Numbered from the stretch's first letter, positions 2,217-16,308 are shown. The stretch: DNA of 64,000 nucleotides from an uncultured Bacteroidales bacterium (GCA_902784475.1 CACZUX010000003.1:3530-67529); one strand, 5' to 3'. Notes: a model not told the origin generated them from the sequence alone. A program made the numbers and translations.

Positions 2217-4693
2217 TTTTCTGTCAATGATTTCCCCTCAGAGGAATTGCTGTAATTGCCATAGAGACCGTAGTGACCGTAGCGGCTGTAGCCGTAGCCG
2301 TAACGCTTGCCGTAACCGCCATAGCGACCGTAGCCGTAGTAATAACCGTACTTCTTCTTCTTGAGATCTACGCCGTTGAGCACGACACTCATCTTCGGCA
2401 GCTTGCCTTCCGCAGCAATCTCATTGAGCAGACGGAAGTTGGCCTTGGGCGAGTAGTCGGCGCGGGCCACGAACAGGGTGGCGTCGGCCAAACGGCCCAG
2501 CATCAGAGAGTCGCTCACAAGACCCACGGGGGGCGTGTCAAGTATGATGTAGTCGTACTTGGTACGGAAGTAGTTGATGGCGTCATCCAAAAGCGAACGC
2601 GAAAGCAGCTCGGCAGGGTTGGGGGGCATCACGCCCGCGGCGATGACGTCCAGATTCTTGTTGCCCACACAGGGATAAATCTGATTCTCCAGCAGAGTGA
2701 AATCCGGACCGTCACCGGCAAGGAAGTTCACAATACCGCGCTTGTCGGCGGACAGACCGAAGAGACTGACCAGACGGGGCTTACGGATATCCAAACCGGC
2801 AATCAGCACCTTCTTGCCCAGGAAGGCCAGCGACATGGCCAGGTTGGATGCCACGAAAGTCTTGCCCTCACCGGGAATGCAGGAGGTACACATAATGACT
2901 TTCTCCTTGCCTTCCAGGATGAAGTTCAGGTTGGTGCGCAGGCCTCGGAAGCTCTCCTCCATCATGTTGTTGCGGTTCTCCTTCACACAAATACCGCGGT
3001 CGCCGGCCGTCAGGGTGTGATCCACAGGGATATCGGCCAGGATACGCAACTTGGTGAGACGCTCAATGTCGCTGCGGCCCTCAATGCGGTAGCGCATCAA
3101 GGAGAGCAGATAGAGCAGACCCATCGGGAAGGCAACGCCCAACACAAAGCAAACACCCAACACCAGAGGCTTCTTGGGAGAAACACGGCCGAGGAGCACG
3201 GGCTCATTGATGATACGACCCTTGCGAGCGGTAGAGGCCAAAGAGATGTAGTTCTCCTCACGCTTCTGCAACAAAGTCAGATACAGACCGGCCTTGATTT
3301 CCTGCTGGCGGGCAATGTTGTTGAACGTATGCTCCATCGTGGGCGATTGCTTCACACGCCCTTGGTACATGCCATATTGCTGATCCACACCGCTCTTTTT
3401 CTTTTGAAGGTCCTCATACACGCTCTCAATGCTGCGACCGATAGCCGGCCACATTTGAGCCATCATGCCGTCAATGCGGACAACTGCAGGATTCTTCTCG
3501 CTGGAAGAACGCACCAGACGGGCACGATCGAGCACCAGCTTATTGTATTCGCTGATTTGAGTCGCCACAGCCTGATTGGACAAGCCCAGATTGGCAGGAA
3601 TCACCTCCGTAGCGTTGGCAGGATTTCTCATGTAGTCCACCAGAGACTTGACCAACATCAGCTCTGTCTGCATCTCCACCTGCTTCTGCTGGAAATTGGT
3701 GCTGGCGTTGAGCGCTGTGGTGGCGTCGTTGGCCAGGTTGATCAGGTCGTTGCGTTTCTTGAAGGTCTCCATGTCGAACTCCGTCTCGTCCAGCTCCTGC
3801 TTGATGATGTTAATACGTTCATGGATGAACTCCTCCGTCTTTAAGGCTATTTCGTTTTTATCCTCATTGGCGTCGTCGTTATAGGCCTGAATGAGGGCAT
3901 TGAGATATTCTGTGCATCGGCTGGGAATACCATCCTTCAGAGATATCTGCGCCACAGTAGTGGTCTTGGCAGTGGGGGCTGCCTGCAAACTGGCAGCATA
4001 GGCCTGACTCATCCAATCGATAGGATATACCGTGACACGCAAATTGCGATCGGACATCGCAAAGCCGGCATTACGGCTCAAAATCAGATTGCCCTCAGGG
4101 GTGGGAATGGTGGCAGGAAAGGTCTTTATGGTCGTATCAATCAAATACTGACGATCTTCCACCTCTTCTGCATTGGTCGTAACCGGAAGAAACATCTCGC
4201 CCTCCACGTGAACACCCTGACCCTTCTTACTGATGGTCAGGTTGATTGGATATTTCAGGTCCTCCAGGCGGCTTTCTTCCAAATCCACAAGAACGGGGCT
4301 GGTCTTGTATATTTCATGACTGGACACACGGCCTTCCTGCACATAACTCACATAGAGTTTCAGGTTCTTTACCACGCGGGTAGCGAGCGACGTGGAAGTC
4401 AGAATCTCCAACTCGTTTTCGAAGCCCGAGCTATTGGAGATCAGTCCCAACTGGTCCATCGCATAACCGTTGACACTGCGGCGACGACTGCTGCCGTCAT
4501 CATCCTTAATCAACACTTTCATACTGGCCATGTACATAGGATGAGCATAACGCAGGTAGACAAAGCCGCAGCCCAGGAAGAACAGAACGCTCAAAAGCAC
4601 CATCTGCCAATTCAGCACAAAGATGTCCCAAAGCGTCTTGAGGTTAAACGCGCCCTCTTCTTCAATCTGTTCGTTTTCGATATAGTCTGCCAT
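2213..4693 (-). CDS. Polysaccharide co-polymerase / tyrosine autokinase (Wzc/PCP2a-like)
   Basis: 826 aa. N-terminal Wzz-type TM region, a long coiled-coil periplasmic region and a second TM segment. Walker A CIPGEGKTFVASNLA, then ILDTPPVG. C-terminal Tyr cluster KKYGYYYGYGRYGGYGKRYGYGYSRYGHYGLYGNY. Confidence 0.92.
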   Translation of the reverse strand: MADYIENEQIEEEGAFNLKTLWDIFVLNWQMVLLSVLFFLGCGFVYLRYAHPMYMASMKVLIKDDDGSSRRRSVNGYAMDQLGLISNSSGFENELEILTSTSLATRVVKNLKLYVSYVQEGRVSSHEIYKTSPVLVDLEESRLEDLKYPINLTISKKGQGVHVEGEMFLPVTTNAEEVEDRQYLIDTTIKTFPATIPTPEGNLILSRNAGFAMSDRNLRVTVYPIDWMSQAYAASLQAAPTAKTTTVAQISLKDGIPSRCTEYLNALIQAYNDDANEDKNEIALKTEEFIHERINIIKQELDETEFDMETFKKRNDLINLANDATTALNASTNFQQKQVEMQTELMLVKSLVDYMRNPANATEVIPANLGLSNQAVATQISEYNKLVLDRARLVRSSSEKNPAVVRIDGMMAQMWPAIGRSIESVYEDLQKKKSGVDQQYGMYQGRVKQSPTMEHTFNNIARQQEIKAGLYLTLLQKREENYISLASTARKGRIINEPVLLGRVSPKKPLVLGVCFVLGVAFPMGLLYLLSLMRYRIEGRSDIERLTKLRILADIPVDHTLTAGDRGICVKENRNNMMEESFRGLRTNLNFILEGKEKVIMCTSCIPGEGKTFVASNLAMSLAFLGKKVLIAGLDIRKPRLVSLFGLSADKRGIVNFLAGDGPDFTLLENQIYPCVGNKNLDVIAAGVMPPNPAELLSRSLLDDAINYFRTKYDYIILDTPPVGLVSDSLMLGRLADATLFVARADYSPKANFRLLNEIAAEGKLPKMSVVLNGVDLKKKKYGYYYGYGRYGGYGKRYGYGYSRYGHYGLYGNYSNSSEGKSLTEK

Positions 4694-4857: not shown

Positions 4858-6261
4858 ATGCTAAAAAAATACAACACAACACACGGTCCTGTCAGATGGG
4901 CAATTGCAATGGTAGACATTCTGCTCGTCATTGTGTGCATGACCGTGGCATACAAATTGACCTTCGCCCATCATCCGCAGACAGCGGCGGCAGTCAGTCT
5001 GCAAAAATACATCATTGCGGCCATCGCGGCTTATATCCCGGCCGTTGCCGTTTTCCGACCCATACTGATGTACAGGGTGGTGCGGGGTGATATCATCGTG
5101 CAACGCACCCTGAACATGTGTCTGCTGCATGTATTAATGCTGCTGACACTGCTGTTTGCCGTAAAGGATCCCCTCGCCAGTCGTGGAGTTTTCGTCTTTT
5201 ATGCCGTCTTCATCACGTTTGCCGTTACTGTCTTTCGCCTGACAACCAGGCGCCTGGTGAGCAAAATCCGCAAATCGGGCCACAACGTCCGTCGCATACT
5301 TTTGGCCGGTCCGGTGGCCGACCTGACAGAGCTTCACGCTTATTTGACCCGGAAAGAATACGGCATCGAGATTCTTGGCATCTTCACGTCCTCCAGTGAA
5401 GAGCAATGCACAAAGCACAGCATCAAGCGTTTGGGCTCTGCCTACGAGTTGTTGTCCTATCTGCAAGACCACGAAGGACAGGTGGACGCCTTGTTTTGTG
5501 CAACGGGCAACGACTCAACCGGCGACACTCGCCAAATATTTTCTTTCTGCGAGAACCACCTTATCCCTTTCCACCTTGTCCCGGCCGTTGGGCCGGCTAT
5601 GGGGCACACCCTTGACGCCCTATATCTGGGCGAAGCTTTGGTGCTTGCTCCACGCAAAGAACCGCTGCTGAATTTTGAAAACAGAGCGATTAAACGCGCA
5701 TTAGACCTGCTCTGCAGTGCCCTTTTCCTGCTGACAGTCTTCCCGGTTATATACATCGTGGCAGCAGTCATCATCAAACTGAAGAGTCCCGGCCCGGTGC
5801 TTGTCGTTCATGAACGAACGGGGTGGAACAAACGTGCGTTCCGCACCGTCAAATTCCGCACAGCCCCTTACAGCAAGGAGGAAAATCGGGAGCTGACAGA
5901 GCAACAGGAATTTCCTTTCGGCAGCTTTATGCGACAAACCCGTCTTGACAAACTGCCGATGTTCATCAACATCTTTTTCGGCAGTATGTCGTTGGTCGGT
6001 CCCTGCCCTCACTGTCCGCAGCAGAGCACAGAGTTCACCGAAACAAGGGAAAAATATAACGTAAACCTGCGCGTGAAGCCCGGACTGACAGGATGGGATC
6101 GCATACAGGGACACATCGGCGAAGACCTGCAACTCCCGCCAACAGAGCAGCGCATAAGGGCAGACATCTGGTACGCCGAAAACTGGACCTTCTGGTTGGA
6201 CTTGCGCATAATCTACCGCAGTCTTTTCTGTTCACCCCCCGACAAAAACAACAACGCATAA
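4858..6261 (+). CDS. Undecaprenyl-phosphate hexose-1-phosphate transferase (WbaP-type initiating polyprenyl glycosylphosphotransferase)
   Basis: Four N-terminal TM helices. C-terminal bacterial sugar transferase domain: KRALDLLCSALFLLTVFPVIYIVAAVIIKLKSPGPV, LDKLPMFINIFFGSMSLVGPCP, KPGLTGW. Start moved to 4858 because of the promoter box. Confidence 0.9.
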   Translation: MLKKYNTTHGPVRWAIAMVDILLVIVCMTVAYKLTFAHHPQTAAAVSLQKYIIAAIAAYIPAVAVFRPILMYRVVRGDIIVQRTLNMCLLHVLMLLTLLFAVKDPLASRGVFVFYAVFITFAVTVFRLTTRRLVSKIRKSGHNVRRILLAGPVADLTELHAYLTRKEYGIEILGIFTSSSEEQCTKHSIKRLGSAYELLSYLQDHEGQVDALFCATGNDSTGDTRQIFSFCENHLIPFHLVPAVGPAMGHTLDALYLGEALVLAPRKEPLLNFENRAIKRALDLLCSALFLLTVFPVIYIVAAVIIKLKSPGPVLVVHERTGWNKRAFRTVKFRTAPYSKEENRELTEQQEFPFGSFMRQTRLDKLPMFINIFFGSMSLVGPCPHCPQQSTEFTETREKYNVNLRVKPGLTGWDRIQGHIGEDLQLPPTEQRIRADIWYAENWTFWLDLRIIYRSLFCSPPDKNNNA

Positions 6262-7526: not shown

Positions 7527-9080
7527 ATGCAATACATCATCATCGTCATAGCCGTCTGCATCATTGCAATATGGTGGGCTGTGTGGTATTTCGCCGTGGT
7601 GCCCGCCAAGCAGCGCAGAATGGAAGAGATGGCCCGCAGCGTGGCTGAAAAAGAGGCCGAAGTGATTAAAGAGAAAAAGCTCCTGGAAGTCAAGGAGGAA
7701 ATCCTGAGCAAACGCACCGAGCTGGAAAAAGAGATGCAGCAGCATCAACAGCAAATCCAGCAGGCTGAGAACCGCGCCAAGCAAAGAGAACTCTCGCTGA
7801 ATCAGCGCAGCGAAGAACTCAACCGGGCCAAACAGGAGACCGACAACGCCCGTCTGCGTATAGAGACACAGCAGCAACTTCTGGAACAGCGCGAAGCCGA
7901 GCTCAACACCCGCCAGAACGCCATCATCGAGAGAGAACGCACCAAGCTGGAAGAGCTCAGCGGGTTGTCGCGCGAAGAAGCCAAAGCACAACTCATTGAA
8001 AGCCTTAAGGACGAAGCCAAGACCAATGCTGCCGCCTACATCAACGAAATCATGGATGAGGCGCGCATCAACGCCAACAAGGAAGCCAAGCGTATCATTA
8101 TCCAAACTATACAGCGCGTGGCCACTGAGACTGCAGTGGAGAACTCCGTCACTGTGTTCCACATTGATAACGACGAAGTAAAAGGCCGTGTCATCGGACG
8201 CGAAGGACGCAACATACGCGCTCTGGAAGCTGCCACCGGCGTGGAACTTGTGGTGGACGATACGCCAGAAGCCATTGTCATCAGCGCATTTGACCCCATC
8301 CGCCGTGAAGTTTGCCGATTGGCACTGCATCAGCTCATTGCAGACGGCCGCATCCACCCTGCCCGCATTGAAGAGGTGGTGGCCAAGGTGAAGAAGCAGG
8401 TGGAAGAGGAAGTGATGGAGACCGGCAAACGCACCACCATCGACTTGGGCGTACACGGTCTGCACCCCGAGTTGATTCGCATCATCGGCAAAATGAAATA
8501 CCGCAGCAGCTACGGCCAAAACCTGCTGCAGCACGCTCGCGAGACCGCCAATCTCTGTGCCGTAATGGCAGCAGAACTGGGTCTCAATCCGAAGAAAGCC
8601 AAACGTGCCGGACTGCTACACGATATCGGTAAAGTGCCCGACGAAGATCCCGAAATGCCACACGCACTCTACGGCGCCAAACTGGCAGAAAAATATAAGG
8701 AGAAGCCTGACATTTGCAATGCCATCGGCGCCCATCACGAAGAGATGGAGATGACGTCACTGATTGCTCCTATTGTGCAGATTTGTGATGCCATCTCCGG
8801 CGCACGTCCCGGTGCACGCAGAGAAATCGTAGAAGCCTACATCAAGAGACTGAAGGACTTGGAGAACATTGCTATTTCTTACCCAGGCGTCACCAAAACC
8901 TACGCCATCCAAGCCGGTCGCGAACTCCGTGTCATCGTGGGTGCAGACAAGATCGACGACAAGCAAATCGAGAAACTCTCCACGGATATTGCCACCAGAA
9001 TACAGAACGAGATGACTTATCCCGGACAGGTGAAGATTACCGTGATACGTGAAACCCGCGCCGTTGCCATCGCCAAATGA
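7527..9080 (+). CDS. rny: Ribonuclease Y
   Basis: N-terminal TM helix and coiled coil. KH domain ([26 protein letters not shown]). HD domain (LLHDIGK ... GAHHEE). Confidence 0.97.
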
Positions 9081-9514
9081 TCATTGCAGTAGATTTTGAC
9101 GGCACCATCGTAGAGAACCGGTATCCGGCCATCGGGCGTGAAAACCCGTTTGCTGTGCGCACGCTGAAAATGCTGCAGGAAGAAGGCCATTTCCTCATCT
9201 TGTGGAGTTGTCGCGAAGGAGAAGAGCTCGATGCCGCATTGGACTGGTGCCGGCAACGGGGACTTGAGTTCTATGCCGTAAACAAGGATTTTCCGGAAGA
9301 AAACGAGAAGGAAAACCTGTCTTTTTCGCGTAAGATCAAGGCAGACATGTTTATCGATGACCGCAATGTCGGAGGATTGCCTGACTGGGGTGCCATCTAC
9401 CAAATGATTCACGAGAACAAAACCTACGAAGAAATCATTGTCGAGCGCGACCACTCTGAACGAAATGAATACGCTTACGACAATTTGCCGAAGAAGAAGT
9501 GGTGGCAGTTTTAA
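9077..9514 (+). CDS. Small HAD-superfamily phosphatase-like protein
   Basis: N-terminal DxDGT motif ([11 protein letters not shown]) and a downstream FIDDR motif. The ATG overlaps the rny stop (ATGA). Confidence 0.7.
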
Positions 9515-9549
9515 AAAAAGACAAAATATAAGACAGTATACGAGTATCC

Positions 9550-10371
9550 ATGAAGAAGATTCTATTCGCCACAATGATTGTGGCATTTGCTCTGTTCCAG
9601 AGCAGCTGCGTAAGCACTAAAAAAATCAAATATTTTCAGAGAGCAGACAGCGTATATGCCCAAGCTCAGCGAATCCAACAAATGTATGAGATGCGCATCA
9701 AGCCTGCCGATCAGATTATGATTAAGGTACACTGCGCCGAGCCCGAATTACTGGAAATCTTTACCAATTCCGTCTTGATGGGAACAACGGGCAGAACAAA
9801 TGCCGGCACTATGGGTAGCGTTACCAACAATGCAGTGGGCAGCTACTATGGCTATACCGTGACCAATGAAGGCACAGTGATTCTTCCTGCCTTGGGCGAA
9901 ATCTACGTCATGGGCCTCACCATTGAAGAGTGTGCCCGCCTGATAGAAAGAAAAATTCAGGAAAAGAACCTCATCCTTGATCCGGCTGTCACCGTAACCT
10001 TCCTCAATGCGCGCGTCACCGTGGTCGGGGCCGTAAAGACGCCCAGGGTCGTCAATCTGACCTCAGAGCGTAATACCGTACTTGATGTTTTGGCTCAATG
10101 CGGTGATTTGGACGACACCGGTCTGCCCAGGACGCTCAAAGTCTTCAGAGAAAACAACGGCGAGCGTGTATTATACGATTTGGACCTTACAGACGTCTCC
10201 GTTTTTGAGTCTCCTGCCTACTATATGCAGCAGAACGACCTCATCTATGTGGAGTTCAACAAGTCGAAGAACATCAAGAAGAGTTCCTTCTATACCTTCC
10301 TCGGTGCCGGCTCCAGTGTCTTGGCACTCGTAAGCAGCATCGTGGCCTTGGTTTACACGCTCAAGAAGTAA
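9550..10371 (+). CDS. Polysaccharide export outer-membrane protein (Wza/BexD-like)
   Basis: Lipoprotein-type signal (FALFQSSC). Poly_export-like YEMRIKPADQIMIKV. SLBB-like VTVVGAVKTPRVVNL. C-terminal hydrophobic helix. Confidence 0.85.
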   Translation: MKKILFATMIVAFALFQSSCVSTKKIKYFQRADSVYAQAQRIQQMYEMRIKPADQIMIKVHCAEPELLEIFTNSVLMGTTGRTNAGTMGSVTNNAVGSYYGYTVTNEGTVILPALGEIYVMGLTIEECARLIERKIQEKNLILDPAVTVTFLNARVTVVGAVKTPRVVNLTSERNTVLDVLAQCGDLDDTGLPRTLKVFRENNGERVLYDLDLTDVSVFESPAYYMQQNDLIYVEFNKSKNIKKSSFYTFLGAGSSVLALVSSIVALVYTLKK

Positions 10372-10376
10372 AAAAA

Positions 10377-11318
10377 TTAGGACAGACGTTCGTTCAATTC
10401 TGACACCTGCTCGTTCAAAGCCGAGAGTTGTTCATGAATAGCAGAGAGCTGGGACTGAATCTCCCGGCTCTCTTCCGTTGTTTCACGCACCTCCGCAGCC
10501 GAGACTCCTTCCGTCAACTGACATGTGTGACAGAACTGCCCGCCAAACAGGCAGATATACCACGAAATCTGCACAAACAGAAGGAATAATGGAATGGCTG
10601 CAAACGAACCGTAGATGGCATTGTAGCTGGAAATCTTAATCTGATAGTGCACATAGAAATAGGCCATACCCTGAAACAATATGGCTGCGATTATGCCAGG
10701 CACGATGCAGTAACGCCACTTCACCTGCGTATTGGGCATCAGCTTGTAGAGAAAAATAAAGCTAAAAGACGTGATGATATACGGCGAGAGATAAAGCATC
10801 CAGTGCACCGTGTTCGTAATAAAGAACATGTCGCCGAACATCTGGGCGAAGGTCATCAAGAGCACGCTTAGACCGCTTGTGATGATAAAGAGCAGAGGCA
10901 TGAGGATAAATACCGAAATGTAGTCGGAAATCTGCTTGTACAGAGAACGCGAGCTCTTTACCCACCATATCTGGTTGAACGCAGTCTCGATGTTGATGGT
11001 CAGATTCACTACGGTGTACATCAGCACGGCAATACCGACACCGACAAAGACTCCGCCCTTGGTGTGCTGCAGATACGAATTGACAAAGCCAATGACCTGC
11101 GTCGCCGTTTCCGGAGAGAAGTCGAGCACCTGATGTATCTTGGATTCGACCATTTCATCGAATCCGAAACCTCTGGCAATGGCAAAGGCGATGGCCAATA
11201 CGGGCACGGAAGCCAACAATGTATTATAGGTCAAAGCCGAAGCAAAGGAGCCTATGTTACCATTAATGAAATGCACCACGGTAAGGCGCAGCAAGCCATA
11301 TAATTTCTTCCAACTCAT
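10377..11318 (-). CDS. YihY/BrkB family membrane protein
   Basis: SFASALTYNTLLASVPVLAIAFAIARGFGF plus six predicted TM segments. C-terminal coiled-coil tail. Confidence 0.85.
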   Translation of the reverse strand: MSWKKLYGLLRLTVVHFINGNIGSFASALTYNTLLASVPVLAIAFAIARGFGFDEMVESKIHQVLDFSPETATQVIGFVNSYLQHTKGGVFVGVGIAVLMYTVVNLTINIETAFNQIWWVKSSRSLYKQISDYISVFILMPLLFIITSGLSVLLMTFAQMFGDMFFITNTVHWMLYLSPYIITSFSFIFLYKLMPNTQVKWRYCIVPGIIAAILFQGMAYFYVHYQIKISSYNAIYGSFAAIPLFLLFVQISWYICLFGGQFCHTCQLTEGVSAAEVRETTEESREIQSQLSAIHEQLSALNEQVSELNERLS

Positions 11319-11337
11319 ATATTCTCAAAAAAAGAGA

Positions 11338-11697
11338 CAGTGAATCTGTAAGCCGGGTTCTGTGCTGCCCGAAAGCAGTGCCTGTCATTTATCCAGGATG
11401 CAGGTCACCCTACACCTCAATCGTTCTACCCTCCGGCTCGGACGGGTCGCCCTCAGACGCCGGTATACGCGAACTTTCAACACCCGGAGTGCACAGCATT
11501 TGCGTCACCGCAAACCTGGTGGGCTCTTACCCCGCCTTCTCACCCTTACCGCCCCCGAAAGAACGGCGGTTGTTTTCTTCTGCACGATCTGACCCTCACG
11601 GATCACTTCCCGTTAGGAAGCGGGTTACCCTGTGTTGCCCGGACTTTCCTCTGACCCAGAGACCGGAGCCTCAAGCCAGCGACAAGCCGATTCACTG
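11338..11697 (-). ncRNA. rnpB: RNase P RNA, bacterial type A
   Basis: The minus strand contains the universal P4 motif GAGGAAAGUCCGGGC (plus strand gcccggactttcctc at about 11636-11650) and ACAGAACCCGGCUUAC near the 3' end. P1 pairing: 5' CAGUGAAUC (11697-11689) with 3' GAUUCACUG (11346-11338). Confidence 0.9.
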
Positions 11698-11723
11698 CCT
11701 CAAATAATCGCTCTTTTTCGCTG

Positions 11724-13014: not shown

Positions 13015-13041
13015 AAAAAGCGGGCGATGTCCGCTTTTTTT
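13015..13041 (+). terminator. Putative rho-independent terminator after htrA-like gene
   Basis: aaaaagcgg-gcgatgt-ccgcttttttt: a short GC stem extended by A:U pairs, followed by a T7 run. Confidence 0.5.
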
Positions 13042-13043
13042 CT

Positions 13044-13051
13044 TACCTTTG
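13044..13051 (+). promoter_or_regulatory. -7 box (TAccTTTG) for the 13080-17104 operon
   Basis: tacctttg lies 29 nt upstream of the ATG at 13080, directly after the terminator hairpin. Confidence 0.55.
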
Positions 13052-13079
13052 CCGCGAAAACGATGTTTTGTAAAAACAA

Positions 13080-13511
13080 ATGAAACACATTCTTTCAATC
13101 CTGATACTTGCGATGTGCTGTGCAGGACTCTCGGCCAAGCCGAAGAAGTGCACCGTCTATATGTTCGGCTTCGGCGCTTCGTTCACGGACTCTGTCGCCT
13201 ACATTACGGAAGTGCAGCCCGTCACTCCGGCCTATATTGAGACTTCCACGAGATTTCTCTACGACCGCAGCCTCTATGCATTGCAGCTCCGCAACTTCAT
13301 GGAAGAGAAATACCAACTGATGAATCCCACCTGCGTCGTATTTTTCAGCACCAAGAAGGGAAAGATGGCTTCCAAGCGCGAAAAACTACGCAAACGCTAT
13401 CTCGACGCGGAGGGCTTCACCCTGATGCGTTTGCCCGCAGAGTTGTTCACCTTCGTCCCGGAGGATTTTGAGTCGCACGAACTCACAGATCCTTTTGAAG
13501 AACAAAAATAA
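13080..13511 (+). CDS. Hypothetical secreted/lipoprotein-like protein (143 aa)
   Basis: N-terminal signal MKHILSILILAMCCAGLSA. No recognised domain. First gene of the operon, ending 5 nt before the kinase-like gene. Confidence 0.7.
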   Translation: MKHILSILILAMCCAGLSAKPKKCTVYMFGFGASFTDSVAYITEVQPVTPAYIETSTRFLYDRSLYALQLRNFMEEKYQLMNPTCVVFFSTKKGKMASKREKLRKRYLDAEGFTLMRLPAELFTFVPEDFESHELTDPFEEQK

Positions 13512-13516
13512 CCGAA

Positions 13517-14404
13517 ATGACTGACGAAAGATACTGCATAGCAGGCCACTGTCTGAGGATACAGTTTGGCGACAGCGACGGACAGACGCTGTTGCCTAAT
13601 TTTGAGAATTTCCGTATCGCCTCAGACGACGTTCGCCGCGACCGCTTTACGGTGCAGGTGCTCCCAGCACTCAACGATTGGGAAGAAGATACACACGAAA
13701 TCGGCCAGTTTGACTGCGGCGGCAGCAACCACGCCGTTCTGCGCCGCAGCGATGACGGCTATCAGTTCGCCATTTCCAATCCCTCCGGCGTGCTGTGTGC
13801 CCGCATTATCGCAGACCCGCTCTTTCAGGATGTGCGTGTGACACTCGTTTCCCCCGAAGAAAGCGACCGTCGTTTCGGGCTAAACAACTGCATGATGCTC
13901 TCCTATTCCTTTGCACTCTGCGAGGAAGACACCCTGCTGGTTCACGCCAGCGTCATTCGCAACAACGGCAGAGGCTACCTGATGACCGCTCCGAGCGGAA
14001 CGGGGAAGAGCACACACACCTATCTGTGGTACAAAAACATTCCCGGATCGGACCTGATGAACGACGACAATCCCGTCATCCGCATCGTAGAAGGCACAGC
14101 AAAAGTGTATGGAAGCCCGTGGAGCGGAAAGACGCCGTGTTATCGCAACATCGAAGCTCCCATCGGGGCTGTTGTGCGCATTCAGCGCAGCAGCGAAAAC
14201 GCCATCCGGCGCCTCTCTCCCATCGAAGCTTTTGCCATGATGCTGCCTTCGTGCAACAACATGAAATGGGACCGCCGGGTTTATACCGCCGTATGCTCCT
14301 CGCTCAATCATCTTGTGGCCACCGCAAAACTTTGGGAACTGGGTTGTCGTCCCGACCGCGAAGCCGCTCTCGTATGCTATGAAGCCGTCAGCAAAGATTA
14401 TTGA
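13517..14404 (+). CDS. HPr-kinase-C-terminal-like P-loop protein (HprK-related kinase family)
   Basis: P-loop LMTAPSGTGKSTHTYLW followed by NDDNPVIRIVEGTAKVYGSPWSGK, resembling the HprK C-terminal domain. About 130 aa of unrelated N-terminal domain. Confidence 0.7.
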   Translation: MTDERYCIAGHCLRIQFGDSDGQTLLPNFENFRIASDDVRRDRFTVQVLPALNDWEEDTHEIGQFDCGGSNHAVLRRSDDGYQFAISNPSGVLCARIIADPLFQDVRVTLVSPEESDRRFGLNNCMMLSYSFALCEEDTLLVHASVIRNNGRGYLMTAPSGTGKSTHTYLWYKNIPGSDLMNDDNPVIRIVEGTAKVYGSPWSGKTPCYRNIEAPIGAVVRIQRSSENAIRRLSPIEAFAMMLPSCNNMKWDRRVYTAVCSSLNHLVATAKLWELGCRPDREAALVCYEAVSKDY

Positions 14405-14405
14405 A

Positions 14406-14849
14406 ATGAGCAATGCCGTGCTCCTCGGGGCCGTAAAAGAAGCGCTCCAAGGGGGACATTCCTGCACGCTCAACGTGCGGGGCTACAGCATGCGTCCCTT
14501 CTTGGAAGACCGTCGGGACAGCGTCGTCCTTTCGCCTGTTGGCAGCACCTTGCATGAAGGAGACGCCGTTTTGGCAGAATTGACGCCGGACCACTACGTG
14601 CTGCACCGCATCATCGGCATCGACGCAGAAAAGGTCACCCTCATGGGCGACGGCAACATACGCGGCACGGAGCAGTGCAGAAAGCAAGACATTTGCGGCA
14701 TCGTCACACGCTACATTCATCCGCGCTGCGCCTTCAATGCCGACAGCCGGATGATGCACTGGGCTGTGCCTTTGTGGCGAAAACTGCTGCCGATACGCCG
14801 TTATCTGCTGAAACTGTACAGTATTGCACGCAAAATAAGACTGTTATGA
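14406..14849 (+). CDS. S24/S26-family peptidase-like protein, soluble, Ser/His type
   Basis: Nucleophile motif RGYSMRPFL. YVLHRIIGIDAEKVTLMGDGN has His where LexA/SPase I have the general-base Lys. No TM helix seen. Start at 14406 is 1 nt after the upstream stop; an alternative ATG is at 14379. Confidence 0.7.
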   Translation: MSNAVLLGAVKEALQGGHSCTLNVRGYSMRPFLEDRRDSVVLSPVGSTLHEGDAVLAELTPDHYVLHRIIGIDAEKVTLMGDGNIRGTEQCRKQDICGIVTRYIHPRCAFNADSRMMHWAVPLWRKLLPIRRYLLKLYSIARKIRLL

Positions 14850-15109
14850 AAATAAAACCCGGTTTTGAACTGAGAATGATGTGCGGCGAGAACGTCATCA
14901 TTGCTTATGGAGAGGAGAACATCAACTTCTCCAAAATCATCGCGCTCAACGAAAGCGCCACCGTCATTTGGAACGCCGTTATCGGCAAAGAATTCACGGT
15001 GGAGGATATGGCGAAGGCGCTCTGCGAAGAATACGAGGTTGATCCGCAGGAAGCGCTGAAAGACAGCGAGAAGATTGCAAAAGAATGGCAGGAATTAGGT
15101 CTCTGCTGA
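14846..15109 (+). CDS. PqqD-family protein (RiPP recognition element-like)
   Basis: 87 aa. MKIKPGFELRMMCGENVIIAYGEE...LNESATVIWNAV...FTVEDMAKALCEEYEVDPQEALKDSEKIAKEWQELGL matches the PqqD pattern. The ATG overlaps the upstream TGA (ATGA). Confidence 0.8.
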   Translation: MKIKPGFELRMMCGENVIIAYGEENINFSKIIALNESATVIWNAVIGKEFTVEDMAKALCEEYEVDPQEALKDSEKIAKEWQELGLC

Positions 15110-16308
15110 CAGCAGTATTCCTGCTGTGTACGCTCCCCCATTTCGCCCAACACCACACGGTGATGGACGAAACGATACGCACGCTGCAGGTGAGCATCAA
15201 CGACGACCGCACCCTGCCTCCGGTGATAACACTGGGCAAAAACACCACATTGCATATTGACTGGGACCAACTCTCCCACACCTATCACCGCTACACCTAC
15301 CACATACAGCATTGCGACAAAAACTGGGAGCCCTCCAACGAGCTCTTCGAGAGCGACTGGCTCTCGGGCGTGAACGGATTGCCCGTTGAAGACTACCGCA
15401 CCAGCTTCAACACCTCTCAGCTTTACACCCACTACCATCTGGCCCTGCCCAATGAAAACACCCGGGTGAGACTGTCGGGAAACTACAAGGTGGAAATCCG
15501 CGAAGACGACGTGCCAGTGCTCGAAGTCCAGTTTTGTGCCGTGGAAAAGACGATGCCCATCACGGTGAAATGCTCCTCCAACACCGACATCGATTTCCAG
15601 AAAAACCACCAGCAACTCACCGTCGGCATCAACTACAACGGCATCCGCATCATCGATGTGGACGAGCAGCTCTATATGCGCGTCATTCAGAACCGCCACT
15701 GGGACGAACGCGTGGAGGGCGTGCGACCCAATATCCGCAAAGCCACCGGAGTGGAGTTTTCGCATCATCGGGGCCTCATCTTCGAGGCGGGCAACGAGTT
15801 TCACAAGTTCGAGCTGCTCGACGTGCACAAGCCCGGCATGGGCATCGACTTCATGCGATGGTACGACCCCTGGTGGCACGTCACGCTCGAAGAGCAGCAT
15901 CCGGGCCGCGCCTATGTGTATGACGAAGATCTGAACGGCGCGTTCTTTATTCGCCGCAACTGGGACGAAGACAACGACATCATGGCCGAATACGTCATCG
16001 TCCACTTCATCCTCAAGACCACTCCGCTCTATGCCACAGGCGATGTGTATGTCAGCGGCCAATGGTCGCAGGGCGAAAAGAGCGAGGAATACCGGATGGA
16101 GTATGACGAGGCTCTGGGGGTCTATGAAAAAGCCGTACTCCTGAAACAGGGCTACTACAGCTACGAATTCATTCAAAGCAACGGCAGCACGGCCCGCACT
16201 ATGGGCAGCTTCTATCAAACTGAAAATGAATACCAGATACTGCTTTACTATCGCGAGCAGGGCGGTCGCTACGATCGTCTTGTGGGCTACGCTTTGGTGC
16301 ACAGTTAA
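15085..16308 (+). CDS. Secreted protein, DUF5103 / T9SS plug-protein-like (tentative)
   Basis: Signal peptide MAGIRSLLTAVFLLCTLPHFAQ. From memory, IRTLQVSINDD..LPPVITLG...HIDWDQLSHTYHRYTYHIQHCDKNWEPS...FNTSQLYTHYHLALPNE...LSGNYKVEI resembles the DUF5103 family. Overlaps the PqqD-like gene by 25 nt. Confidence 0.6.
   Translation: MAGIRSLLTAVFLLCTLPHFAQHHTVMDETIRTLQVSINDDRTLPPVITLGKNTTLHIDWDQLSHTYHRYTYHIQHCDKNWEPSNELFESDWLSGVNGLPVEDYRTSFNTSQLYTHYHLALPNENTRVRLSGNYKVEIREDDVPVLEVQFCAVEKTMPITVKCSSNTDIDFQKNHQQLTVGINYNGIRIIDVDEQLYMRVIQNRHWDERVEGVRPNIRKATGVEFSHHRGLIFEAGNEFHKFELLDVHKPGMGIDFMRWYDPWWHVTLEEQHPGRAYVYDEDLNGAFFIRRNWDEDNDIMAEYVIVHFILKTTPLYATGDVYVSGQWSQGEKSEEYRMEYDEALGVYEKAVLLKQGYYSYEFIQSNGSTARTMGSFYQTENEYQILLYYREQGGRYDRLVGYALVHS

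Follow-up and report, generated by a model that had tools for sequence, protein, structure and literature searches.

We analyzed a 64,000-nt stretch of DNA from an uncultured Bacteroidales bacterium (GCA_902784475.1, CACZUX010000003.1:3530-67529; the whole stretch is hereafter called the window), in which four genes on the + strand at 13044-15109, 3' of the terminator of an htrA gene, form a compact cassette in the order g1-K-S-B (Table 1). They encode a secreted protein (g1), a P-loop protein (K), a signal-peptidase-like protein (S) and a PqqD-family protein (B). The spacings are +5 nt between g1 and K, +1 nt between K and S, -4 nt (ATGA) between S and B, and -25 nt between B and the next gene, and a TAccTTTG box begins at 13044 directly after the terminator; all of this was found exactly as laid out in an earlier reading of the sequence (the original prediction). 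TAnnTTTG is the -7 promoter consensus of Bacteroidota, known from Bacteroides promoters, and by its match to this consensus the box is a putative promoter element. The consensus occurred 33 times in the window compared with 17 +/- 4.4 matches expected from shuffled sequences (approximately two-fold), a weak but enriched signal. A scan of the four proteins revealed a hydrophobic segment in g1 and none in K, S or B; thus the latter three look cytoplasmic or soluble, and g1 alone appears to carry a signal peptide.

The original prediction could not assign this gene set to any described class of peptides made on the ribosome and modified after translation (RiPPs). A matching class now exists, and for this reason the cassette can be read as a reduced variant of a described kind. 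Linear polyphosphorylated peptides (LPPs), a RiPP family described in May 2026 (Popov et al., Nat Commun 2026;17:6633; PMC13381572), have a core consisting of an HprK-like kinase (LppK), an archaeal signal peptidase I (SpI)/SipW-like peptidase (LppS), a RiPP recognition element (RRE; LppB), an NTP_transf_5 protein (LppN) and an MsbA-like exporter (LppD), and the characterized cluster, lppA-K-B-S-D-N, is that of Paenibacillus alginolyticus DSM5050 (PMC13381572). According to the text of that report, the precursors are 35-200 aa long, carry a YxxPxVLxHQxIxFETxxS leader and are conserved at the N-terminus but variable at the C-terminus; LppK places several phosphates on core Ser3; leader cleavage by LppS needs LppB and is abolished by S29A, H68A and D93A; and in LppB, D70 grips the leader tyrosine and N33 fixes the proline kink of the YxxP leader (PMC13381572). 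The family is stated there to be restricted to Bacillota, patchy and driven by horizontal gene transfer (HGT), with a biological role that is not known, and its clusters often lie within capsule loci. The domain table of the same report gives TIGR04249 (ScmC) matches in 67 of 126 LPP neighbourhoods, and its dataset holds two Bacteroidota peptidases only, both of them SpI domains fused to an ABC transporter (PMC13381572).

First, we examined K, which the original prediction had described as an HPr-kinase-C-like P-loop protein. The motif strings quoted for it (...APSGTGKSTHT...NDDNPVIRIVEGTAKVYGSPWSGK...) are present in the protein, as is the string GYSMRPF quoted for S. The HprK-like fold was borne out, whereas membership of the Hpr_kinase family was not: the Pfam Hpr_kinase domain had no match in K, precomputed annotation places the protein in the Pfam family PF27840 'ScmC', and a Foldseek search with the AlphaFold model (predicted local distance difference test (pLDDT) score 93) ranked ATP-PEPCK first (E = 2e-8) and HprK/P second (E = 2e-5), with a query-normalized TM-score of ~0.3 to the HprK/P fold. 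No curated Pfam or NCBIfam family was matched above threshold, and the matches to TIGR04352 (HprK-related kinase A; 25.7, cut-off 200) and TIGR04249 (ScmC; 22.7 bits, cut-off 125) were weak. A profile of the K family returned nothing but P-loop noise from PDB sequences (HprK/P 1ko7, E = 0.5), and our scan found no K relatives in viral contigs. The concern that K might belong to an unrelated, characterized family was not confirmed. K belongs to a large family, with 7661 clusters when grouped at 50% identity (E <= 1e-3). Its invariant residues include H143, S145, SGxGKS (160-165), NDDNP (182-186) and WSGKT (202-206). K is thus predicted to be a P-loop phosphotransferase of the PEPCK/HprK fold and, by analogy with LppK, a peptide serine kinase.

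Second, S had been described as an S24/S26-type peptidase. The soluble, S26-like part of this description stood; the protein is of the archaeal/SipW type with Ser, His and Asp and is no LexA-type Ser/Lys enzyme. Matches to Pfam Peptidase_S24 (E = 1.8e-3) and sigpep_I_arch (E = 1.1e-3) were both below cut-off. In an alignment of 16 family members the boxes GxSMxPF, HR and GDGN were invariant (G26, S28, M29, P31, F32, H67, R68, G81, D82, G83 and N84); the serine aligns with the LexA nucleophile, and the general-base position is occupied by the invariant histidine of His-Arg, not by the lysine of the Ser/Lys dyad of LexA/UmuD-type S24 peptidases. A LexA-like self-cleaving regulator was also considered for S and rejected, as the protein has no DNA-binding domain and has histidine in place of lysine. 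Over 84 residues, S and LppS share 26% identity (E = 3e-6); S28, H67 and D82 of S fall on S29, H68 and D93, the triad of LppS, and a profile of the Prevotellaceae S family scores LppS at 40.6 bits. With the SipW/archaeal-ER signal peptidase I group (S26B), S shares the boxes GxSMxP, HR (histidine for the bacterial lysine) and GDxN; unlike this group, it has no transmembrane segment that could serve as a membrane anchor and occurs together with, or fused to, a cytoplasmic kinase and an RRE, and a role in the processing of Sec substrates is not expected. On the analogy with LppS, we predict that S is a soluble archaeal/SipW-type SpI-like serine protease that would act as an RRE-dependent leader peptidase.

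Third, the proposal that the 87-aa protein B is a PqqD-family RRE was supported by the Pfam PqqD profile, whose match passed the curated cut-off (E = 1.2e-14); two models for lasso PqqD chaperones, NF033530 and NF033536, were matched below threshold. In a multiple alignment, N35, W42, Y63 and D73 of B, which are invariant or nearly so, align with N33, W40, Y60 and D70 of LppB. N35, Y63 and D73 thereby match the residues with which LppB holds the leader at its tyrosine and its proline kink, whereas the passages on LppB in the report state no binding role for W40 (PMC13381572). The closest relatives found of both S and B are the uncharacterized SpI and 'other RRE' pairs of cluster 4 of the sequence similarity network (SSN) of that report (Dehalobacter, Anaerocolumna), which come from Bacillota (Supplementary Data 1, PMC13381572). 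S is 28% identical over its full length to the Dehalobacter peptidase WP_041225767.1 (E = 8e-16), including a C-terminal W..L.P.R..L motif, and B is 34% identical to the RRE paired with that peptidase (WP_015045167.1; E = 7e-14), both proteins starting with MKIK.GF.LR. B is accordingly best described as a discrete PqqD-family RRE and as the predicted counterpart of LppB, a leader-peptide chaperone.

Comparison with known systems revealed that the cassette and LPP clusters have in common an HprK-like kinase (TIGR04249 model; putative in the cassette), a Ser/His/Asp SpI-like peptidase and a discrete RRE with the YxxP-binding residues, as well as the lack of a cyclase and the presence of capsule genes nearby. 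In contrast with LPP clusters, the window contains no equivalents of LppN, LppD and LppA and has g1 as an extra conserved secreted component; moreover, the cassette is found in Bacteroidota, vertically inherited and in a fixed chromosomal context, whereas LPP is a patchy, HGT-driven system of Bacillota. The paeninodin and pseudomycoidin lasso clusters (K, N, RRE B1 and D) are similar in their HprK-like precursor-serine kinase, PqqD RRE and [Y/W]xxP leader, but they need a macrolactam cyclase (C) and a transglutaminase-like leader protease (B2), the latter in place of the serine SpI-like protease of the cassette. Neither is annotated in the 11 related loci for which Pfam annotations were available, and these annotations contain no radical-SAM, YcaO, lasso-cyclase or transglutaminase families at all; no lasso cyclase or transglutaminase-like B2 protease was found by Pfam among the cassette proteins of the window either. 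The original prediction had noted the same absences at this locus, and the possibility it raised, that orthologous loci always carry a lasso cyclase, is not borne out by these loci. SynChlorMet ScmC (TIGR04249) and TIGR04352 proteins belong to the same P-loop superfamily as K, share its Pfam family name and also have PqqD-family neighbours; on the other hand, K scores far below their cut-offs, and no radical-SAM/SPASM partners are annotated in the 11 loci. We found no published account of the Bacteroidota cassette in the literature on PqqD in Prevotella/Bacteroides, ScmC, PF14907 and HprK-related kinase.

To place the cassette in a wider context, a scan of GTDB species genomes for K yielded at least 595 K-encoding stretches, and gene order was examined in the best 80 loci, nearly all of which were labelled Prevotellaceae, Prevotella-group Bacteroidaceae or Bacteroidales. 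In these 80 loci K was 41-55% identical to the window protein; the window, which derives from a rumen Prevotellaceae, has a K locus 96% identical to the metagenome-assembled genome RUG598. S adjoined K in 71 of the 72 evaluable species loci and B lay within 3 kb of K in all 72, so that the gene-neighbourhood survey proposed with the original prediction found the trio co-conserved outside the source genome. Similar proportions were obtained for metagenome loci (59/62 and 56/62, respectively). Fusions of K and S (K::S, ~430-490 aa) were present in 13 of the 150 best representative clusters (P0128, P0281 and 11 others), and two such loci (L091 7001-8461 and L092 7001-8476) had the order rpoD, g1, K::S, B. 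The synteny, the tight packing and the K::S fusions argue for one functional unit under selection rather than a remnant. Rather than being peculiar to one genome, the cassette is an operon that has been conserved across Prevotellaceae. None of the four cassette proteins matched the PADLOC anti-phage defence models, and a defence role is thus unsupported.

The gene rpoD was located 5' of the cassette in 47 of 76 GTDB loci. In the majority of other species this primary sigma factor gene lies directly 5' of g1, sometimes overlapping it (L007 6623-7483, L091 5477-6340 and many others), and where it adjoins g1 the operon is probably co-transcribed with it; no rpoD homologue was found in the 64-kb window. 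Some further variants of the locus were observed. In L062, L088, L090, L148 and L170 the PqqD gene is on the opposite strand just 3' of the peptidase gene, an arrangement suggestive of a local inversion in which the genes stayed side by side. Three records titled Clostridia bacterium (L062), Flexilinea sp. (L064) and Oscillibacter sp. (L068) contain g1-K-S with a PqqD gene nearby (reversed in L062, ~2 kb downstream in L068), with K 43-45% identical to the window protein and htrA 5' in L062 and L068, L064 being only 4.7 kb long; these contigs are probably mis-binned Bacteroidales DNA.

The first gene of the operon, g1, was found 5' of K in 68 of 76 GTDB loci and is a conserved component in Prevotellaceae, often translationally coupled to K. 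In its product, an N-terminal signal peptide precedes a conserved alpha/beta domain of ~110 aa (VYMFGFxxSFxDSxxYxT..Q), and the tail is variable; no Pfam, NCBIfam or PADLOC family was matched. An AlphaFold model based on a 17-sequence alignment (pLDDT 85) had no fold match in the PDB, and its structure therefore provides no functional lead. We considered g1 as an LPP-type precursor and rejected it, since it lacks a YxxP motif. In one sub-clade (L065, L069, L074 and L076) there is ~1.2-1.3 kb of extra DNA between g1 and K, which implies an inserted gene, and L073, cut short downstream, has the same spacing.

Homologues of K at 31-44% identity revealed two further layouts, type B and type C, in addition to that of the Prevotellaceae loci (type A). 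In type B, NTP_transf_5 and/or an MsbA/HlyB-like ABC exporter come after K-S-B (e.g. L096, L098, L110 and L125), whereas in type C the order is B-NTP_transf_5-(ABC)-K without S, located between Bac_transf and Wza/Wzc in polysaccharide loci (L093, L094 and L097); in L097 a triple fusion of 1191 aa (8001-11576, P0211) joins NTP_transf_5, ABC exporter and ScmC-like K. Near 9 of 19 type B and C loci we identified, by eye and then with a profile, small open reading frames (ORFs) of 35-77 aa with a YxxP motif (Table 1). They follow the pattern M-(K/E)-K-x-Y-x-x-P-x-(I/L)-E-V-I...A-G-S, with a conserved serine ~20 residues past the tyrosine, and have acidic, Gly/Asp/Pro/Asn-rich tails that often end in W-D-E-E-W. 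Most of them adjoin, and are co-directional with, a gene for a large lipoprotein or secreted protein, and two of the adjoining genes match Mfa_like_1 (fimbrillin-like). These peptides belong to no Pfam or NCBIfam family; when they were aligned with two LppA sequences, the tyrosine and the proline were invariant in all 15, and on this basis they resemble LppA precursors. The fuller metagenome relatives thus have NTP_transf_5, an MsbA-like ABC exporter and candidate YxxP precursors in addition; K-S-B-NTP_transf_5-ABC, as present in some loci, corresponds to the core genes of LPP, and the type B loci are LPP-like clusters.

Table 1. Positions of the cassette genes and adjoining features in the window, and of YxxP ORFs near related loci
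Feature	Sequence	Position	Strand	Remarks
Terminator-like hairpin and T-run	Window	13022..13043	+	Stem 13022-13036, then TTTTTTT; closes upstream htrA
TAccTTTG box	Window	13044..13051	+	Directly 3' of hairpin and T-run; 29 nt 5' of g1 start codon
g1	Window	13080..13511	+	Secreted protein, 143 aa
K	Window	13517..14404	+	P-loop protein, PEPCK/HprK fold, 295 aa
S	Window	14406..14849	+	Archaeal-type signal-peptidase-I-like, 147 aa; ATG one base past K stop
B	Window	14846..15109	+	PqqD-family RRE, 87 aa; overlaps S by 4 nt
Type IX secretion system (T9SS) plug protein gene	Window	15085..16308	+	NCBIfam T9SS_plug E = 8e-121; overlaps end of B by 25 nt
YxxP ORF	L095	5985-6101
YxxP ORF	L125	8686-8826
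YxxP ORF	L164	2086-2262
YxxP ORF	L110	1633-1854
YxxP ORF	L175	125-268
YxxP ORF	L096	7458-7619	-
YxxP ORF	L096	15382-15555	-
YxxP ORF	L173	~1203-1391	-
YxxP ORF	L093	9259-9492
YxxP ORF, weaker copies	L138, L118, L028, L161, L017, L111

From these results, the interpretation that we favor, and that we hold to be reasonably probable, is that the cassette is a relative of the LPP core in Bacteroidota, reduced to three enzymes and a secreted partner and acting on a peptide encoded elsewhere. The original prediction had offered a kinase, protease and RRE module of this kind as one of its options, and homology to the characterized LPP system now predicts it. Beside the homology, conserved residues, fusions and synteny that were observed, the Paenibacillus lpp system offers a model for the possible steps. 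A small ribosomal precursor would be bound by B at its [Y/W]xxP leader, which would join as an extra beta-strand, K would phosphorylate, perhaps repeatedly, a serine just past the leader, and S would take the substrate from B and remove the leader by cleavage. Candidate substrates would be the M-K-K-x-Y-x-x-P-x-I-E-V-I...A-G-S peptides found beside the fuller relatives.

Several observations weigh against this interpretation. The first group concerns what the window lacks. A profile hidden Markov model and two regular expressions, applied in six frames, gave only spurious matches and thus no YxxP-leader precursor in the 64 kb; tblastn searches of the window with two NTP_transf_5 (LppN) proteins from related loci found no match, nor did a tblastn search for the MsbA-like ABC exporter (LppD). 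Across the related loci, neighboring cassette genes usually abut or overlap and therefore leave no room for a conserved small ORF, as the original prediction had pointed out for the window, and small ORFs in the enlarged S-B or g1-K gaps of other species had no YxxP match. The substrate would thus be encoded elsewhere or be of a different kind, and what it is remains conjecture. The second group concerns the proteins. The closest solved fold of K is PEPCK, a small-molecule kinase, and its likeness to LppK comes from the fold and the weak TIGR04249 match, not from the LppK sequence; S is only 26% identical to LppS; pairwise comparison of B with LppB detected no similarity, the profile score was 16 bits and B falls outside the LppB clade; and the S-B pair is nearer to the SSN cluster 4 Bacillota group. 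The third group concerns the YxxP peptides. Around type B and C loci they occurred at a density of 4.2 per 100 kb, compared with 0.36 per 100 kb around type A loci, a difference of ~12-fold that is inflated and partly circular because the profile was trained on the same hits. A few type A loci have YxxP ORFs within 10 kb and these have no fixed place, which would fit action in trans. The type B loci come from metagenomes, and we infer that they are Bacteroidales from their fimbrillin-like lipoproteins, Bacteroidales-type mobilization genes and higher similarity to the window proteins. Finally, the universal vertical conservation beside rpoD, unlike the patchy, HGT-driven distribution of LPP, could mean that the cassette does a different job.

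With regard to that job, the operon probably has a housekeeping or cell-envelope role rather than that of a strain-variable antibiotic, as suggested by its vertical conservation across Prevotellaceae, its usual linkage to rpoD and its tie to the conserved secreted protein g1, features in which it differs from LPP in Bacilli, where the pattern is patchy and conflict-like. A more specific proposal, which we put forward as a tentative and rather doubtful one, is that K, S and B form a trans-acting housekeeping machine, often co-transcribed with rpoD, that phosphorylates and clips dispersed YxxP small proteins, many of them encoded beside fimbrillin-like lipoprotein genes, and that the products work with g1 at the envelope (capsule, fimbriae or T9SS).

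Other explanations should also be considered. The trio might mature a full-length protein, either g1 or another envelope or secreted protein, with B docking an N-terminal segment, S clipping it and K phosphorylating it. It would then be meaningful that g1 is the sole conserved non-enzyme partner, with frequent translational coupling to K, that LPP precursors reach 200 aa and combine a conserved N-terminus with a variable C-terminus much as g1 has a variable tail, and that S is a signal-peptidase homologue while g1 has an N-terminal signal-peptide-like segment with an AxA-type site. However, a conserved [Y/W]xxP motif is missing from g1, the N-terminus of the protein resembles an ordinary Sec signal peptide, whose use in export would put g1 beyond the reach of cytoplasmic K, S and B, and the fuller relatives do without g1 yet have YxxP peptides. 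The original prediction had named the secreted operon products as possible substrates; lacking a YxxP leader they are poor candidates, and we consider this explanation unlikely.

A role in capsule or exopolysaccharide synthesis with a non-peptide substrate, in which K would be a PEPCK-type kinase of a sugar or lipid-linked intermediate and the PqqD protein a generic chaperone, appears to us quite improbable. The best fold match of K is indeed PEPCK, in distant relatives PqqD-NTP_transf_5-(ABC)-K, lacking S, sits between Bac_transf and Wza/Wzc, and in the window itself genes for Wzc-like, Bac_transf and Wza proteins are located upstream of the cassette and those for a flippase and glycosyltransferases downstream. 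Nevertheless, bona fide LPP and paeninodin peptide clusters have likewise been reported from capsule loci, PqqD-type RREs with YxxP-binding residues are peptide binders, the polysaccharide locus L093 also has a YxxP-like ORF (weak, E = 0.21), and a leader-type protease such as S would have no role in a non-peptide pathway. Finally, that the cassette is a decaying, functionless remnant of an ancestral cluster of the LPP or lasso-like type, as the missing precursor, exporter and NTP-transferase genes might suggest, is very hard to reconcile with the intact gene order and invariant catalytic residues over 80 species in which K has diverged to the extent given above, with the tight or overlapping gene packing and the independent K::S fusions, and with the recurrence of the same reduced set in nearly all loci, which points to purifying selection.

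The surroundings of the cassette in the window were also inspected. The T9SS plug gene that overlaps the end of B is probably co-transcribed with the cassette here, whereas in other species it is on the opposite strand or missing from the neighborhood. An AmiA-like gene and the T9SS plug gene adjoin the cassette only in the nearer clade, and in some species they are on the other strand; both were considered as obligate partners and rejected, as the adjacency is confined to that clade. Capsule/exopolysaccharide genes lie 3-10 kb from the cassette: those for Wzc-like, Bac_transf and Wza/Poly_export proteins are upstream, and those for the flippase and glycosyltransferases are downstream (2363-4663 on the - strand, 5686-6231 and 9550-10368 on the + strand, and from ~22400 onward). 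Housekeeping genes (zapA, RNase Y, RNase P RNA and htrA) are interspersed among them, and the link of the window to capsule genes may therefore be a coincidence. The gap between a BrkB-like gene and htrA is filled by a class A RNase P RNA (11333-11698, - strand; 235 bits, E = 3e-75), which several spurious ORF calls span, and ARAGORN found no tRNA genes in the window.

If the interpretation favored here is correct, the kinase, signal-peptidase-like protease and RRE core of LPP would now be found in Bacteroidota, as a minimal operon without precursor and exporter genes, which suggests that phosphorylated ribosomal peptides serve a conserved physiological function. Our results also supply candidate YxxP substrates and the secreted partner g1 for testing, with Segatella albensis, Prevotella veroralis and Hoylesella marshii as cultured entry-point strains, and flag for re-annotation a 'hypothetical protein' gene family in gut and rumen Prevotella. 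Should the proposal of a trans-acting machine prove true, RiPP-type chemistry would have a core physiological role in a dominant gut and rumen family, rather than serving as a weapon of conflict.

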